A DNA stretch of 43,548 nt from a virus. A program made the position numbers and the translations under genes. The stretch lies in the IMG/VR virus record IMGVR_UViG_3300042731_008280, one strand, 5' to 3'. The notes under the pieces were generated by a model. The model was not told where the DNA came from, made no database searches, and saw only the letters and a list, made by a program, of their open reading frames with translations. Position 1 is the stretch's first letter; every line of letters begins with the position of its first letter. Shown in pieces: positions 1 to 43,548 of this stretch.

Positions 1-148
1 GGTGTAGGTAAAGTGGCTTAAGTATCTTGAGTATTTTGTTTTGTATCTTAAATATTTTATATTTTCTAATCGCAGGGTTTTAGTATTATCCAGATTAATT
101 TGATTAAGTGACCAGTTGATATAATTAGTTCTGTGCTGTTGGGCTTTA
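1..148. repeat. Left copy of a ~148-bp direct repeat. It is ~93% identical to 43401..43548 and lies inside tnpB copy 1.
   Basis: By eye the alignment to the window end shows about 10 mismatches in 148 nt. Confidence 0.9.
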
Positions 149-895
149 GTAAAAGCCTTGGAAGCTTTGGTTTTCCTGGCTAACTTTTGATTTATTGTTT
201 GTAAAGTATGACCGTGTTTGCAAGGTTGCGAAGCAACGCCGTTAGATAGAGTAAAAGTATTTAATACCCCTATGTCTAATCCTAATGTTTGCCCTGTTTG
301 TTTAGGTTTGACTTCTGGTAGATCAAACACTAAGGTTATGGCTTTCTTGGAAAGCCTGAGGCCGGGTTTTAGCCGGCCGCCTGCGGCGGTTAGCTTATTA
401 AAATGTTTAGTAGCTTTTACTGGAATAGGAATTTTTAATTTGTTTCCTAATGAAGTTAGAGTAATTATACCATCGAAAATGGTTTGGTTTTGCCAGTCTT
501 GTTTAATAAAGCGTGAATCTAATTCTGGTTCTACTTGGTTAATGTTAGGTTTGGAAACATTGGTTTCGTCTATTATAGATTTTAATTTTTTAGCTTGTTT
601 AATTTTGTTTTCGGTTAATAGTTTGTTGTAAATATAATTTCGTTTTTGTTGTTTTTTACAGGTGCCTCGTACTATTCCAGAAGCTTGTTTGGCAGCAGCT
701 TGAACGGCCCTGGCTGAAAGCCAGGTTATAATCTGGGAAGTAATAGTTTTAGGTAATAGTTTTGGGATATTAGGTTGAAGCCAAAGGATATCTACGAATT
801 GGGAAACCACTCGACGATACTCGTCGATGAACAAGTTTAAATTATCCAGTTTGGTTTTGTTAGTAAATTTTGTGGATAATTTAGTTGACTTGATC
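1..895 (-). CDS. tnpB: TnpB/OrfB-like RNA-guided nuclease of an IS200/IS605-family element, copy 1. The N-terminal ~298 aa are in the window (ATG at 893-895). The 3' part runs off the window start.
   Basis: Reverse-strand translation MIKSTKLSTKFTNKTKLDNLNLFIDEYRR...TLGLDIGVLNTFTLSNG... carries a RuvC-I-like GLDIG motif. The open frame continues to position 1. It is paralogous to the fragment at 43081..43548. Confidence 0.8.
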
Positions 896-942
896 ATTGG
901 GGGTTTCCTTACAATAATTTTATAAAATATTAATAGATTTGG

Positions 943-1245
943 CTATATTTGGGTACAAGTATTAGAAAAGAATATTATACCTAGGTCATGATCTTGTAGA
1001 AATTGGTCCCAAAATATGTGTTCTCTAGTAGGCAAGCGAGATAAAGTACTTCTGATTTCATCTATTCCAGTGACCGCAATCTTTACCCAATCAGCTTCGA
1101 TTATATCATCACTGGAGATTATCTCTTCAAATGTCTTACTTCGACTAGTACCAGTAATTAATATAAATTGTGGACCATTTTCATTTAGACTATATAAATT
1201 GTAACCTTTTATCGAATGCGGTAACAGACTATTTTTATTATTCAT
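943..1245 (-). CDS. Hypothetical protein, 100 aa. The ATG start sits immediately after the pth stop (TAAATG).
   Basis: ORF with ATG at 1243-1245; no motif recognised. Confidence 0.4.
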   Translation of the reverse strand: MNNKNSLLPHSIKGYNLYSLNENGPQFILITGTSRSKTFEEIISSDDIIEADWVKIAVTGIDEIRSTLSRLPTREHIFWDQFLQDHDLGIIFFSNTCTQI

Positions 1246-1866
1246 TTAAATTTTTTCTCTCTTTTTATTATAAATATTCATCGTGTGTTGCACATCATAT
1301 TTAATAAATGTATCGACCACGTCTATCGCTAATCCAAATAATTCGCAGAAACACTTGCGTTCAGAAATACTAAAGTCGGACAGTACATAATCACTAGCCG
1401 TCTGACCTATTTTTGGTCTACCTATCCCTATTCTAAATCTAGTAAAATCTTTACCAATGGTGTCTATAATTGACTGGACACCATTATGCCTACCAGAATT
1501 ACCACTGCACTTTACTTTTATATCTCCGAACTCAAAATCCATATCATCGTGAATTACCATAATATCTAATGGATTGTAATTACACACTCTTTTTATTAAA
1601 CTAATAGTATTTCCACTTGAATTCATCCAATCCAATGGTTTGACAAATATTACAGCATTATTATGAATTATTTTGCTGTCAAGTTGAACACAATTATTTT
1701 GTGGGATACGGCAGTAAGATTTATATGTATAATACTTTTCCACAAGAGCATCTATCACCATGAAGACTATATTATGCCTAGTATGGCTAATCTTTTCTCT
1801 GGATTTCCCAACCCAACAATCATCTTCTGCATATATCATCTCTTGAAACAAGTATCCATTACACAT
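1246..1866 (-). CDS. pth: Peptidyl-tRNA hydrolase (Pth family).
   Basis: Motifs TRHNIVF, KPLDWMNSSGNTIS, VIHDDMDFEFGDIKVKCSGNSGRHNGVQSI and FRIGIGRP match the Pth signature. The start could alternatively be the internal ATG at 1839. Confidence 0.8.
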   Translation of the reverse strand: MCNGYLFQEMIYAEDDCWVGKSREKISHTRHNIVFMVIDALVEKYYTYKSYCRIPQNNCVQLDSKIIHNNAVIFVKPLDWMNSSGNTISLIKRVCNYNPLDIMVIHDDMDFEFGDIKVKCSGNSGRHNGVQSIIDTIGKDFTRFRIGIGRPKIGQTASDYVLSDFSISERKCFCELFGLAIDVVDTFIKYDVQHTMNIYNKKREKI

Positions 1867-2365
1867 GTGACCAAAATTTATAAGATCTATCCTTTAGAAA
1901 TTTCGTTATCCTGGAATAATCTGAACCATTCGCTAAATTAAAATAATCTATACCGAACTTCTTTGCTATTCTAATTCCCATGCTAGTGCCACCGCGTTCC
2001 TCATTACTAGTCCAACATACCATAAACTTTACATATTCATCTAAATGTCTTCCCAACATAATTTGCACGTTGCGGCCATGTAATTTTTTTGTATAATCAT
2101 TACAATTATGAGGAGCAGGATGAAGAGACATTGCAACTTTTATAGACTCAGGTGTAGCATCTATCGGCCTAAAAATCTCTCTACGCAATGTGCCACTAGC
2201 AAAAGCTATATCAGCACTTCTCTCACCCTTAGCCCCACCAGATCTCAAAGTATATCCTTCCAGATCCATCACCATTCCTAAGTTAATCATAATAGGTAAC
2301 ATATTTTTAGGACTGTGGCGAGACCCTATGCCAGCGTAATATAATACAGAATTCTTATAACCCAT
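1859..2365 (-). CDS. SLOG-superfamily (DprA/Smf/LOG/YpsA-like) Rossmann-fold protein. The start is refined to ATG 2365; the ORF track begins at GTG 2389.
   Basis: YYAGIGSR...LRSGGAKGERSADIAFASG resembles the DprA/LOG-type glycine-rich nucleotide-binding loop. Confidence 0.4.
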   Translation of the reverse strand: MGYKNSVLYYAGIGSRHSPKNMLPIMINLGMVMDLEGYTLRSGGAKGERSADIAFASGTLRREIFRPIDATPESIKVAMSLHPAPHNCNDYTKKLHGRNVQIMLGRHLDEYVKFMVCWTSNEERGGTSMGIRIAKKFGIDYFNLANGSDYSRITKFLKDRSYKFWSHV

Positions 2366-41843: not shown

Positions 41844-42032
41844 TATGTCCTCTTAAAATTAGAATGGCTACCAAACATCCGATAGAAAGATTTCTGTTGG
41901 ATTTTGCGAAATACACGGTATCCATGTATCGCGATTATTCTGCAACGGACCAGTTCATACACCAATCTCGACGAAGTCAAAGCATTTGATACTTCGTCAA
42001 CCATATTTGACTCACTAGTTTTAGTCATTTTG

Positions 42033-42512
42033 CTAATACTGGATATGACCATCAATGACTTTGGGAACATTATGGATTTTCCCAACATTACCTTGGTGCA
42101 CGTCCTCAACACAAATACACTTGGACCTTATAACCGATAAAAGTTGTGAACGATAAAAATCTTTATCATATATATCAGTTTCACATCTCTGTTCTATCAC
42201 AAATAAATTGCCGATATTAACATATAACCGTGGCAAAAATTTATTTAACTTAGCAGATGAAAAGACTCGATGTATGGTTAATATATCTTTGATCGATTCG
42301 TACCTATACTTGGACATTCCTATCCACTTACATACAAGAGGCCCTTTGATGGCTATATATTTATCCTTTCCTGGATGGGAAACTTTCCATCCACGTTGTT
42401 GCATTAAAGTTTTTAATACAAGATTCCAAGCACATTGGTCAGAATTTATTGCCAACTTAAAAGCTGATACAGCTTCAGCGATCAACCTCCGTTTTTGTCT
42501 CGATTTACTCAT
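42033..42512 (-). CDS. Hypothetical protein, 159 aa.
   Basis: ORF only. Confidence 0.35.
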   Translation of the reverse strand: MSKSRQKRRLIAEAVSAFKLAINSDQCAWNLVLKTLMQQRGWKVSHPGKDKYIAIKGPLVCKWIGMSKYRYESIKDILTIHRVFSSAKLNKFLPRLYVNIGNLFVIEQRCETDIYDKDFYRSQLLSVIRSKCICVEDVHQGNVGKIHNVPKVIDGHIQY

Positions 42513-42978
42513 ATTGTATTTTTACCCCATGTCGTTCATAATGAGAAATAACTCTATGGTCATCTTTTTTACATTCGCAATAATCCCAACAGGCAGTAGC
42601 GTTACGGATCAGTTCTACTGGCATATGCGACGCAAGCGAACATGCAGTATCCATAACACAATAACACAGATTGACACCGCATACTTCAACTCCATCATCC
42701 CAGTTCCATCCTCTTTTTTTCATAGCCTTTAGAACTTCTGCGTGTCCATCATCATTATGCTTTTCAGCATAGCATACATTATCCGCTCCACATTGTTTTA
42801 GGATAGACATCAAATCATCGTGAGTTCTAGAATATTTAGATATCGTATATTCCAAAACTACTACTTTTTGTTTGATCTCCTCAGCTTGATTCAACACTGC
42901 TTGGAGTTGTTCCTTTACTTTTTTAGCATTAGACCAAAACCCTTTTTGAGCATCAACTAAAACCAATGTTTTTGCCAT
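42505..42978 (-). CDS. Isochorismatase-fold cysteine hydrolase, paralog 3.
   Basis: TLVLVDAQKGF and VEVCGVNLCYCVMDTA; ATG start. Confidence 0.6.
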   Translation of the reverse strand: MAKTLVLVDAQKGFWSNAKKVKEQLQAVLNQAEEIKQKVVVLEYTISKYSRTHDDLMSILKQCGADNVCYAEKHNDDGHAEVLKAMKKRGWNWDDGVEVCGVNLCYCVMDTACSLASHMPVELIRNATACWDYCECKKDDHRVISHYERHGVKIQYE

Positions 42979-43077
42979 AATTGAAAAAGCCTTTCCTTCT
43001 AATTCCTTTGTTACTAATTATGTTAAACCAATTTATAGTAGACTACTACAGTTCCAACAATATAGTTCCCTAAAATA

Positions 43078-43093
43078 TGGTCATTTATGACCA
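43078..43093. repeat. Perfect 16-bp palindrome (TGGTCATTTATGACCA) overlapping the tnpB copy-2 stop codon. Candidate IS-end or omega-RNA hairpin.
   Basis: Read directly from the sequence. Confidence 0.5.
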
Positions 43094-43548
43094 ATAAGTT
43101 CTTGGGTAGAGGAGACTATAGACTTCCCCCTTGAAACATTCCAATAGAAACCTTTTCTATTTTTGTGTTCCAATCGTTGCTTCTGGCTAATAGCCATCAA
43201 CGGCGTAGCGATATTACAGGCAGCGTTATAATCCGAATCGCACTTGAACTTACATGCTTCGCATTTAAATTGCTTGCCTTTTCTATTGCTACTACGAACC
43301 CAGCCACAATTTGAACACCTTTGTGAAGTGTAAGTAGGACTTGTGTAATTAATAGAACATCCATTGGTTTTGCACAAATCTTTTAACTTACGGTAAATTT
43401 CGGTGTAGGTAAAGTGGCTTAAGTATCTTGAATATTGTATTTTATGTCTTAAATATTTTATGTTTTCTAATCGTAGGATTTTAGTATTATCCAGATTAAT
43501 TTGATTAAGCGACCAGTTGATGTAATTAGTTCTGTGCTGTTGGACTTT
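43081..43548 (-). CDS. tnpB: TnpB/OrfB-like nuclease, copy 2. The C-terminal ~155 aa are in the window; the 5' part lies beyond the window end.
   Basis: The frame stays open to the window edge: ...YLSHFTYTEIYRKLKDLCKTNGCS...CSNCGWV...CEACKFKCDSDYNAACNIA (zinc finger plus RuvC-III DxNAAxNI). The upstream part is 93% identical to copy 1. Confidence 0.8.
   Translation of the reverse strand, partial: KVQQHRTNYINWSLNQINLDNTKILRLENIKYLRHKIQYSRYLSHFTYTEIYRKLKDLCKTNGCSINYTSPTYTSQRCSNCGWVRSSNRKGKQFKCEACKFKCDSDYNAACNIATPLMAISQKQRLEHKNRKGFYWNVSRGKSIVSSTQELIGHK
43401..43548. repeat. Right copy of the ~148-bp direct repeat shared with 1..148.
   Basis: See the left copy. Confidence 0.9.

Follow-up and report, generated by a model that had tools for sequence, protein, structure and literature searches.

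Diverged copies of a probable tnpA-less IS607-family derivative, with a covarying omega-RNA scaffold predicted in the 3′ end of tnpB, at the ends of a viral metagenome sequence

The DNA analysed here, hereafter the window, is the whole 43,548-nt stretch of IMG/VR virus record IMGVR_UViG_3300042731_008280, and both of its ends lie within genes for the RNA-guided nuclease TnpB, carried by an insertion sequence (IS) element that is the subject of this study. At its start, positions 897..1 on the minus strand encode a TnpB N-terminus of 299 stop-free codons (copy 1, codons 1-299; ATG at 897..895), whose translation includes TLGLDIGVLN. At the other end, positions 43548..43081, also on the minus strand, encode the C-terminal 155 residues (copy 2, codons 251-405, with a TGA stop at 43083..43081), with the RuvC-II glutamate in LRLENI, a CxxC...CxxC zinc finger and the RuvC-III aspartate of CDSDYNAA in CDSDYNAACNI. 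Both parts are thus read in translation where the original prediction, made from the sequence alone, had placed an N-terminal TnpB part with a GLDIG motif and a C-terminal zinc finger with RuvC-III. The two halves overlap in homologous register, with positions 1..147 matching 43402..43548 as the sole long repeat spanning the window; this diverged shared stretch had been recognised, although its figures of 148 nt and 10 mismatches are corrected here to 147 nt and 11 mismatches (92.5% identity), ten of which are transitions and five of which change an amino acid. Joining the halves into a full-length TnpB, as had been proposed, gave a 405-aa protein that aligned end to end with hundreds of proteins of ~390-410 aa, and which matched Cas12f1-like_TNB (Pfam PF07282) at 55.5 bits against a curated cut-off of 26.3 (E 6e-15).

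Using exact matches of window proteins in public assemblies, we traced the window to contig Ga0394146_0000049 (52,110 bp) of JGI metagenome 3300037297, where it corresponds to positions 3442..46989 in reverse complement, so that each end falls arbitrarily within a gene. In the contig piece L021 (contig 1..14485), positions 3442..14485 are 100% identical to window 43548..32505, and in L024 (contig 35745..52110) positions 1..11245 are 100% identical to window 11245..1. Each tnpB gene is complete there at 405 codons, copy 2 at contig 2692..3909 (L021 2692..3909) and copy 1, which runs on past window position 1, at contig 46093..47310 (L024 10349..11566). These copies are 90% identical over 1,320 nt, lie 43.4 kb apart and have different neighbours, which bears out the original view of two distinct, diverged TnpB-only copies in direct orientation. 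Two further copies, inverted relative to copies 1 and 2, are located 1.8 and 3.6 kb outside the window, copy 3 being cut off by the contig start (contig 1..776) and copy 4 by the contig end (contig 50920..52110), so that the 52-kb contig holds four tnpB copies in both orientations. In Logan contigs from an independent run (SRR12668987), unique DNA was matched at 100%, and the contigs ran 29 nt and 54 nt into the element before breaking off, which is how k-mer assemblies behave at a repeat.

Alignment of seven or eight copies with their flanks defined both ends of the element, which is ~1.32 kb long with sharp edges and consists of an 82-nt left end (LE), tnpB, and 19 nt past the stop codon, ending ...GGGAACTAT. 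Similarity among copies starts 82-83 nt ahead of the ATG, at (G)TATAATATTCTTTTCTAATA, and the extents in the window are therefore 1..979 for copy 1 and 43062..43548 for copy 2. The LE of copy 1 (898..979, minus strand; motif match at 953..980) starts TATAATATTC, with a perfect -10 hexamer (TATAAT), and has an AGGA ribosome-binding site before the ATG, and among copies the LE differs pairwise at 0.08 per site compared with ~0.2 at third codon positions. The right end (RE) of copy 2 is the 19-nt tail CCATATTTTAGGGAACTAT (43062..43080, minus strand), which is nearly invariant among copies. As the homology of all copies stops at 43062, the ~100 nt of element that had been expected past the stop are reduced to these 19. 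Relatives with 35-55% amino acid identity all finish in (A)ACTAT or (A)ACTGT, that is, (A)ACTRT, and in the relatives L010 and L019 homology stops exactly at this terminus, which gives independent support for the RE boundary; in the pairs L003/L007 and L017/L020 the boundaries were too fuzzy to give an LE edge or target. The ACAGTT...AACTGT ends of L011 and L019 hinted at terminal inverted repeats, which we do not claim for the element studied here, where only copy 3 keeps a comparable ATAGT at its LE.

The LE also overlaps upstream genes. A 100-aa open reading frame (ORF) upstream of copy 1 (943..1245, minus strand) extends 35 nt into the LE before its stop, which indicates that the insertion replaced its native C-terminus. 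The ORFs upstream of copies 5, 6 and 7 likewise end within the LE, and copy 7 lies within a codon of the native stop of its upstream gene (...TGG TAT|TAA). In copies 5 and 7 (L026 and L028) the target TGG|TAT together with the element's AAT reads TGGTATAAT, an extended -10 promoter exactly at the LE junction, and the element may therefore assemble its own promoter from the target.

Every copy has a TAT at each of its two junctions. For copy 1 the LE junction reads GG-TAT (977..981, minus strand), where the GG at 981..980 belongs to the flank and the TAT occupies 979..977. Across seven copies the LE junctions read TAGG|TAT, ATAG|TAT, TTGG|TAT, GGAG|TAT, TTGG|TAT, GTGG|TAT and AGGG|TAT (five GG and two AG), and all right ends close ...AAC-TAT before an unrelated flank. 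Copy 5 splits an ORF whose joined flanks give a protein with full-length homologues of 170-172 aa; a 73%-identical homologue is intact in the syntenic Logan contig L030 and reads CCT TGG CAT GGC TCA, while the occupied site reads CCT TGG|TAT AAT...AAC TAT|ACT CCA, which assigns one TAT codon to the target. Two more unoccupied sites were found in L031, a related phage contig (70-78% nucleotide identity) colinear with the 52-kb contig on both sides of copy 2: the sequence is ...CAATTATATAGTAT|GCTGCT... at the copy-2 site and ...CAAGGTAT|TTTTT at the copy-3 site, with TAT occurring once in each and TnpB in neither. With the element removed, the copy-1 site would read ...CCTAGGTAT|TCTTGATA... and the copy-2 site ...ATATAGTAT|ATTGTTGG.... 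Together, the seven LE junctions and three unoccupied sites define the target motif, called for in the original prediction, as ~RG-TAT, an occupied site having TAT at both junctions. In published IS607 elements, recombination takes place at a GG core inside TGGG or GGG motifs (PMC10711439; bioRxiv 10.1101/2023.11.20.567912; PMC13565253). Here a purine-G is kept 5′ of the junction, but the sequence shared by both junctions is TAT and not GG. The crossover could take place at a serine-recombinase core inside the TAT, or by a cut following GTAT as in IS605; as the junctions fit either, the family assignment rests on the serine recombinase of relatives, described below.

The search for further copies, also envisaged originally, was productive. 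At the protein level it recovered four clusters with 88-92% identity, each of them from the sample of the 52-kb contig, and further copies were located on contigs of 311,797 bp (P0001, P0121, P0003, P0004), 32,660 bp (P0002), 37,379 bp (P0124, P0125) and 3.3 kb (P0126). With copies 1-4 the total is at least 11 distinct copies in one metagenome, at least seven of the variants being off the 52-kb contig. The surroundings of the copies include thymidylate synthase and kinase, dihydrofolate reductase, a GIY-YIG/NUMOD3 endonuclease, an amidase, peptide deformylase and many glycosyltransferases, and more distant TnpB relatives were located on IMG/VR contigs of up to 327 kb. From this gene content and these relatives, the copy-bearing contigs look like those of a very large (>300 kb) phage and may belong to a single genome. 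Searching cultured-phage DNA with both window halves found no relative, the exact RE pattern had no match in IMG/VR and JGI metagenome contigs (collections without the source contig), and the neighbour proteins of copies 1 and 2 had no relatives in IMG/VR. The sample accessions retrieved no literature. In GTDB, the 185,579 reference genomes contained a single relative, 49% identical and located on a 1.9-kb contig of a Bacteroidetes metagenome-assembled genome from Lake Erken, a match that gives no inference about the host. Multi-copy carriage is not unique to this phage, as another viral contig (IMG/VR UViG_3300022871_000506, 39.4 kb) holds two TnpB copies of the same family, L003 and L007, that are 77% identical to each other. 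Other selfish nuclease genes are also found beside the copies, with an HNH endonuclease gene between copies 1 and 4 (L024 14051..14530) and a GIY-YIG and NUMOD3 pair directly upstream of copy 7 (L028 2199..2937).

All six full copies are intact and keep GLDIG, LRLENI and CDSDYNAA, which together hold the RuvC D-E-D triad, as well as the CxxC...CxxC zinc finger, and RuvC-II and RuvC-III align with solved Cas12f/TnpB chains (E = 4e-15). Comparison of these six copies gave dN/dS (the ratio of non-synonymous to synonymous substitution) of 0.12-0.19 at dS 0.25-0.47, and such purifying selection at this level of divergence indicates that each copy has been kept functional since the copies diverged. 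The nearest neighbour also shifts along the gene, with copy 2 being closest to copy 8 over nt 151-450 and to copy 6 over nt 826-1050 (Fisher p = 1e-6, for segments picked after inspection), which indicates that the copies are mosaics that have exchanged sequence.

The original prediction expected an omega-RNA scaffold and guide at 42979..43080, downstream of the copy-2 stop codon, and proposed folding 42979..43150. This interval folds like shuffled sequence (z = 0.09), while for the final 239 nt of the element (43062..43300) z is -3.9, with 0 of 200 shuffles as good. We aligned 16 right ends, from four copies and 12 relatives, and analysed them with RNAalifold. Within the coding 3′ end, conservation at the nucleotide level is seen in AATAG..GG.TTCTATTGG and GG.CAGGAG..TAYAGTC.CTG. 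This region contains a stem-loop, AGUCUAUAGUC (43108..43130, minus strand), with a 6-bp stem (43130..43125 pairing with 43113..43108) and an 11-nt loop; the stem has no broken pair in the 16 sequences and shows compensatory changes at four of its six pairs (five of the seven predicted by RNAalifold). The loop UAYAGU is complementary to the last five bases of the element, ACURU, such that in copy 2 the loop AUAGU (43119..43115) forms a pseudoknot with the 3′-terminal ACUAU (43062..43066, minus strand), which includes the junction TAT. This pairing is present in 16/16 sequences and covaries A/G with U/C, being AUAGU-ACUAU (UA) in nine, ACAGU-ACUGU (CG) in five and G-U (UG) in two. Taken together, stem and pseudoknot are paired in 176/176 cells (100%), compared with 39-70% when the 3′ partners are slid, and contain 29 compensatory cells, a number reached in 0/500 shuffles.

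A terminal hairpin spans the stop codon at 43078..43093 (minus strand). This is the 16-bp palindrome noted originally, which does overlap the stop but is not perfect, as it consists of 7-nt arms around a 2-nt centre (TGGTCAT TT ATGACCA, 14/16 symmetric). A hairpin of unrelated sequence lies 3-16 nt upstream of ACURU in most of the 12 relatives (clear in ~10), with single-sequence z mostly modest (+0.3 to -3.7), and in these folding models the hairpin appears to be conserved in structure and not in sequence. Third-position diversity among the copies also drops from ~0.2 to 0.09 in the last 27 codons. The covarying stem and pseudoknot, the fold z-score and this reduced diversity place the scaffold in the 3′ coding region, ending at 43062, and not at 42979..43080; we predict that it comprises the last ~100 nt or more of the ORF plus the 19-nt tail, with a 3′ end of ...GGGAACUAU. 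The guide, in turn, does fall in the interval originally given, from 43061 downwards. According to the TnpB/omega-RNA architecture (PMC10711439), the predicted guide of copy 2 is the first 16 nt of unique flank, AUUGUUGGAACUGUAG (43046..43061, minus strand), and the flank directly after the RE differs in every copy. At gathering threshold, Rfam detected only tRNAs in the window and eight relatives. IS607 TnpBs are known to absorb an invariant junction nucleotide into the scaffold and to conserve a pseudoknot (PMC10711439), and the position of the junction TAT inside the pseudoknot matches this.

No tnpA had been visible in the window, and none came to light here: tblastn with three serine-recombinase TnpAs against the window and ~3 kb around eight copies gave a best E of 0.06, and neither Y1 transposase nor Resolvase was among the precomputed Pfam matches of genes neighbouring the copies. 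In six relatives (L009, L011 and L017-L020; 35-46% amino acid identity) an ORF of ~190-200 aa ends at the tnpB start, with shared YARVS...KDRLTRFG motifs, and both of the upstream ORFs that were scanned (two of the six) matched Pfam Resolvase at 1e-15 to 1e-16. Remnants of a serine recombinase gene are also present in L001/L002 (55% identity) and in L013. The remnant in L013 (9832..10008) fuses an N-terminal helix-turn-helix to the C-terminal tail of a serine recombinase, which amounts to an internal deletion, while the element in L010 corresponds to that of L011 without tnpA and has the right flank in common with it; L013, and L010 when set against L011, represent stages of tnpA decay in the relatives. 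The serine recombinase upstream of tnpB in relatives points to the copies being tnpA-less derivatives of the IS607 family and not of IS200/IS605.

We consider it likely that each window end lies in one copy of a 1.32-kb tnpA-less IS607-family derivative, which is present in at least 11 diverged copies (88-92% nucleotide identity) on contigs resembling those of a very large phage. Several points weigh against this. The lack of any type of tnpA in the window or ~3 kb around eight copies leaves current mobility unproven, and copies that differ by 8-12%, at dS 0.25-0.47, give no sign of a recent burst. No capsid or terminase gene was seen, so that "phage" is inferred, and the unoccupied sites come from genomes that are only 70-78% identical in nucleotide sequence. 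The IS607 assignment draws on relatives of at most 55% amino acid identity, not on the closer ones at 60-68%, and the RE junction lacks the GG at which published IS607 elements insert. Taken by themselves, the junctions would also fit IS200/IS605-style insertion 3′ of GTAT. No Rfam omega-RNA family matches, the best score in a permissive scan of the 3′ end being a sub-threshold one for IS605-orfB-II.

These last points bear on the alternative that fares best, an IS200/IS605-type element moved as single-stranded DNA by a Y1 TnpA acting in trans and inserting 3′ of GTAT without duplication. A tnpB-only element inserted directly after a fixed short motif is what it would predict, there is a subterminal hairpin near the RE and, by eye, possibly one at the LE, and the sole Rfam hint has the right strand and position. 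We nevertheless regard this origin as unlikely: that hint is far below threshold (18.6 bits versus 88, E = 1.3), every relative with an adjacent transposase has the serine recombinase type and none a Y1 enzyme, and the TAT (TGT in relatives) at both junctions covaries with the scaffold, like the fixed junction nucleotides of IS607 (PMC10711439).

For an IS607-family derivative, guide production, cleavage, homing and mobilisation in trans could be connected as follows. Read-through transcription past the right end would give each copy a guide from its own 3′ flank, and the TnpB-omega-RNA complex would cut an allele in which ~RG-TAT abuts that flank. Such an allele would be an empty site, whether left by excision or present in a related phage that co-infects. 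Repair by recombination with an occupied genome would then copy the element back, resulting in homing or retention. For insertion at further RG-TAT sites, a serine recombinase TnpA would have to act in trans. RNA-guided cutting and repair as a means of retention has been shown experimentally for IS605 and IS607 TnpBs (bioRxiv 10.1101/2023.11.20.567912; PMC13565253). We infer that the elements persist, and possibly spread between co-infecting genomes, by RNA-guided cutting of unoccupied RG-TAT sites and subsequent repair by recombination.

Alternatively, the copies could be domesticated, immobile phage genes that serve as RNA-guided nucleases or regulators against competitors or host DNA, or in TldR-like repression. 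The strong purifying selection on all copies despite 10% divergence, the absence of a transposase and the conserved ends would be in keeping with such a role, but we judge it somewhat less probable still than an IS200/IS605 origin, as the predicted guides are the adjacent flank, as in selfish elements, the insertions interrupt or truncate phage genes, and the sites are polymorphic among related phages. A TldR-like dead nuclease in particular was rejected, since the catalytic triad is intact. A more far-reaching form of the mobile-element reading is that a very large phage keeps at least 11 active TnpB-omega-RNA units, each with a guide of its own, as homing or "marker-exclusion" endonucleases against related co-infecting phages, without a resident transposase, and that in this IS607-derived lineage TRT has replaced GG as the recombination core and become hard-wired into the pseudoknot. 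We put this forward tentatively and hold it to be possible but doubtful; if it were true, transposase core, TAM (transposon-associated motif) and scaffold would co-evolve.

Between copies 1 and 2 lie ~42 kb (982..43061) in which all genes are on the minus strand and of phage-type families, most of them PHROGs. The original prediction saw here an accessory block between IS copies, and a composite island brought in, or removable as a unit, by the flanking copies would explain why the block sits between two direct 1.3-kb repeats of 90% identity; the mosaicism also implies that copies recombine with each other or with other alleles, and a deletion of 43.4 kb by recombination of copy 1 with copy 2 is conceivable. 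Against this, the genes around the copy-2 and copy-3 sites follow in unchanged order in L031, where TnpB is absent from both sites, the two inverted copies lie outside the supposed boundaries, and composition and strand bias run smoothly through the window. We consequently find an island very improbable: synteny, on the copy-2 side, with a contig lacking the elements identifies the 42-kb interval as phage backbone and not element cargo. It could instead be supposed that the halves belong to one tnpB, differing as strain variants, and that a 43.4-kb circular genome was assembled in circularly permuted or terminally redundant form. The joined ends do give exactly one full-length gene of family-typical length, with mismatches that are mostly transitions, as among strains. 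This reading was already held unlikely in the original prediction and is now scarcely credible: the window is internal to the 52,110-bp contig, where each copy continues complete into different neighbours, which excludes circular permutation, and the 10% difference extends over all 1,320 nt, beyond the overlap too. A circular genome with direct terminal repeats was rejected on the same grounds, and for annotation this means that near-identical window ends need not imply circularity; here they are paralogous mobile elements, at which assemblers break.

The genes of the interval include two RNA ligases, a Thg1-like protein, a PNK-like ATPase, peptidyl-tRNA hydrolase, RNase T, DprA-like and vault-like proteins and four tRNAs. 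Six of these, peptidyl-tRNA hydrolase, RNase T, the PNK-like ATPase, the two RNA ligases and the Thg1-like tRNA-His guanylyltransferase, form an RNA-repair/tRNA set on the minus strand (1246..1866, 7830..8393, 21195..21740, 28794..29879, 37341..38159 and 39413..40279), together with tRNA-Glu, tRNA-Phe and tRNA-Ile(TAT) at 23599..23675 and 36474..36624. In the tRNA at 19350..19426 (minus strand; Rfam 52.7 bits) ARAGORN reads a four-base anticodon, "ggtc", with no amino acid assigned; its anticodon loop may be 8 nt long, or its structure unusual. An 833-aa ORF (2533..5034, minus strand) is major-vault-protein-like, matching Pfam MVP_shoulder (3e-22) and Vault_3 (9e-11) without a PHROG match. Three tandem paralogous ORFs of 158, 127 and 128 aa occupy 19842..21158 (minus strand) as direct repeats with a period of ~415 nt and 83-87% identity. 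Finally, ORFs at 9772..10869 and 16268..17248 (minus strand), both in PHROGs of unknown function, gave sub-threshold radical-SAM matches (Pfam 21.8 and 23.3 bits versus 29.5).

For TnpB biology, the diverged copies, at least 11 in number, form a natural series whose ends are defined and for which three unoccupied sites and a covarying scaffold and pseudoknot are at hand. This gives a testable TAM (RG-TAT) and guide set for a compact 405-aa IS607-derived TnpB. Should the copies act as RNA-guided homing endonucleases, they would be a guide-RNA counterpart of T4 seg and mob, which is within the predictions of current models. Like seg and mob of T-even phages (PMC13565253), they are small selfish nuclease genes between or at the ends of conserved phage genes, polymorphic among related phages, and would be expected to spread in co-infection by cutting the element-less allele; unlike them, recognition would be by a guide RNA and a short motif and not by protein, and homing is a proposed role here.

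Among transposon-encoded systems, the element resembles IS607 TnpBs such as ISXfa1 (PMC10711439) and CboIStron/IS607 (bioRxiv 10.1101/2023.11.20.567912), with a TnpB of ~400 aa, a TnpA ORF that in the relatives ends at the tnpB start, a scaffold that overlaps the tnpB 3′ end and includes invariant junction nucleotides and a 3′ pseudoknot, and G-containing bases just 5′ of the junction. Unlike those elements, no tnpA is present in the eight copies examined, the junction is TAT (TGT in some relatives) and not GG, the inferred target is RG-TAT and not TGGG, GGG or AGGAG, there is no group I intron, and the element is multi-copy in a phage-like genome. With ISDra2 and other IS200/IS605 TnpBs (PMC10278001) it shares the RuvC nuclease, the order of tnpB, a scaffold in its 3′ end and a flank guide, and the proposed homing or retention, while differing in that its relatives carry a serine recombinase and not Y1 and that no Rfam IS605-orfB model reaches threshold. 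The tnpB of cyanophage A-1(L) (bioRxiv 10.64898/2026.02.14.705889) is likewise on a tailed phage and missing from close relatives, but it is single and identical to IS copies of the host, in contrast to the at least 11 diverged copies found here. TnpBs carried by phages, and also viral IS607 elements, have been described before (PMC12607003; bioRxiv 10.1101/2023.11.20.567912; bioRxiv 10.64898/2026.02.14.705889), and the element fits this known viral TnpB pattern, its particulars being the non-GG TAT junction, the covarying pseudoknot and the unusually many diverged, intact copies.

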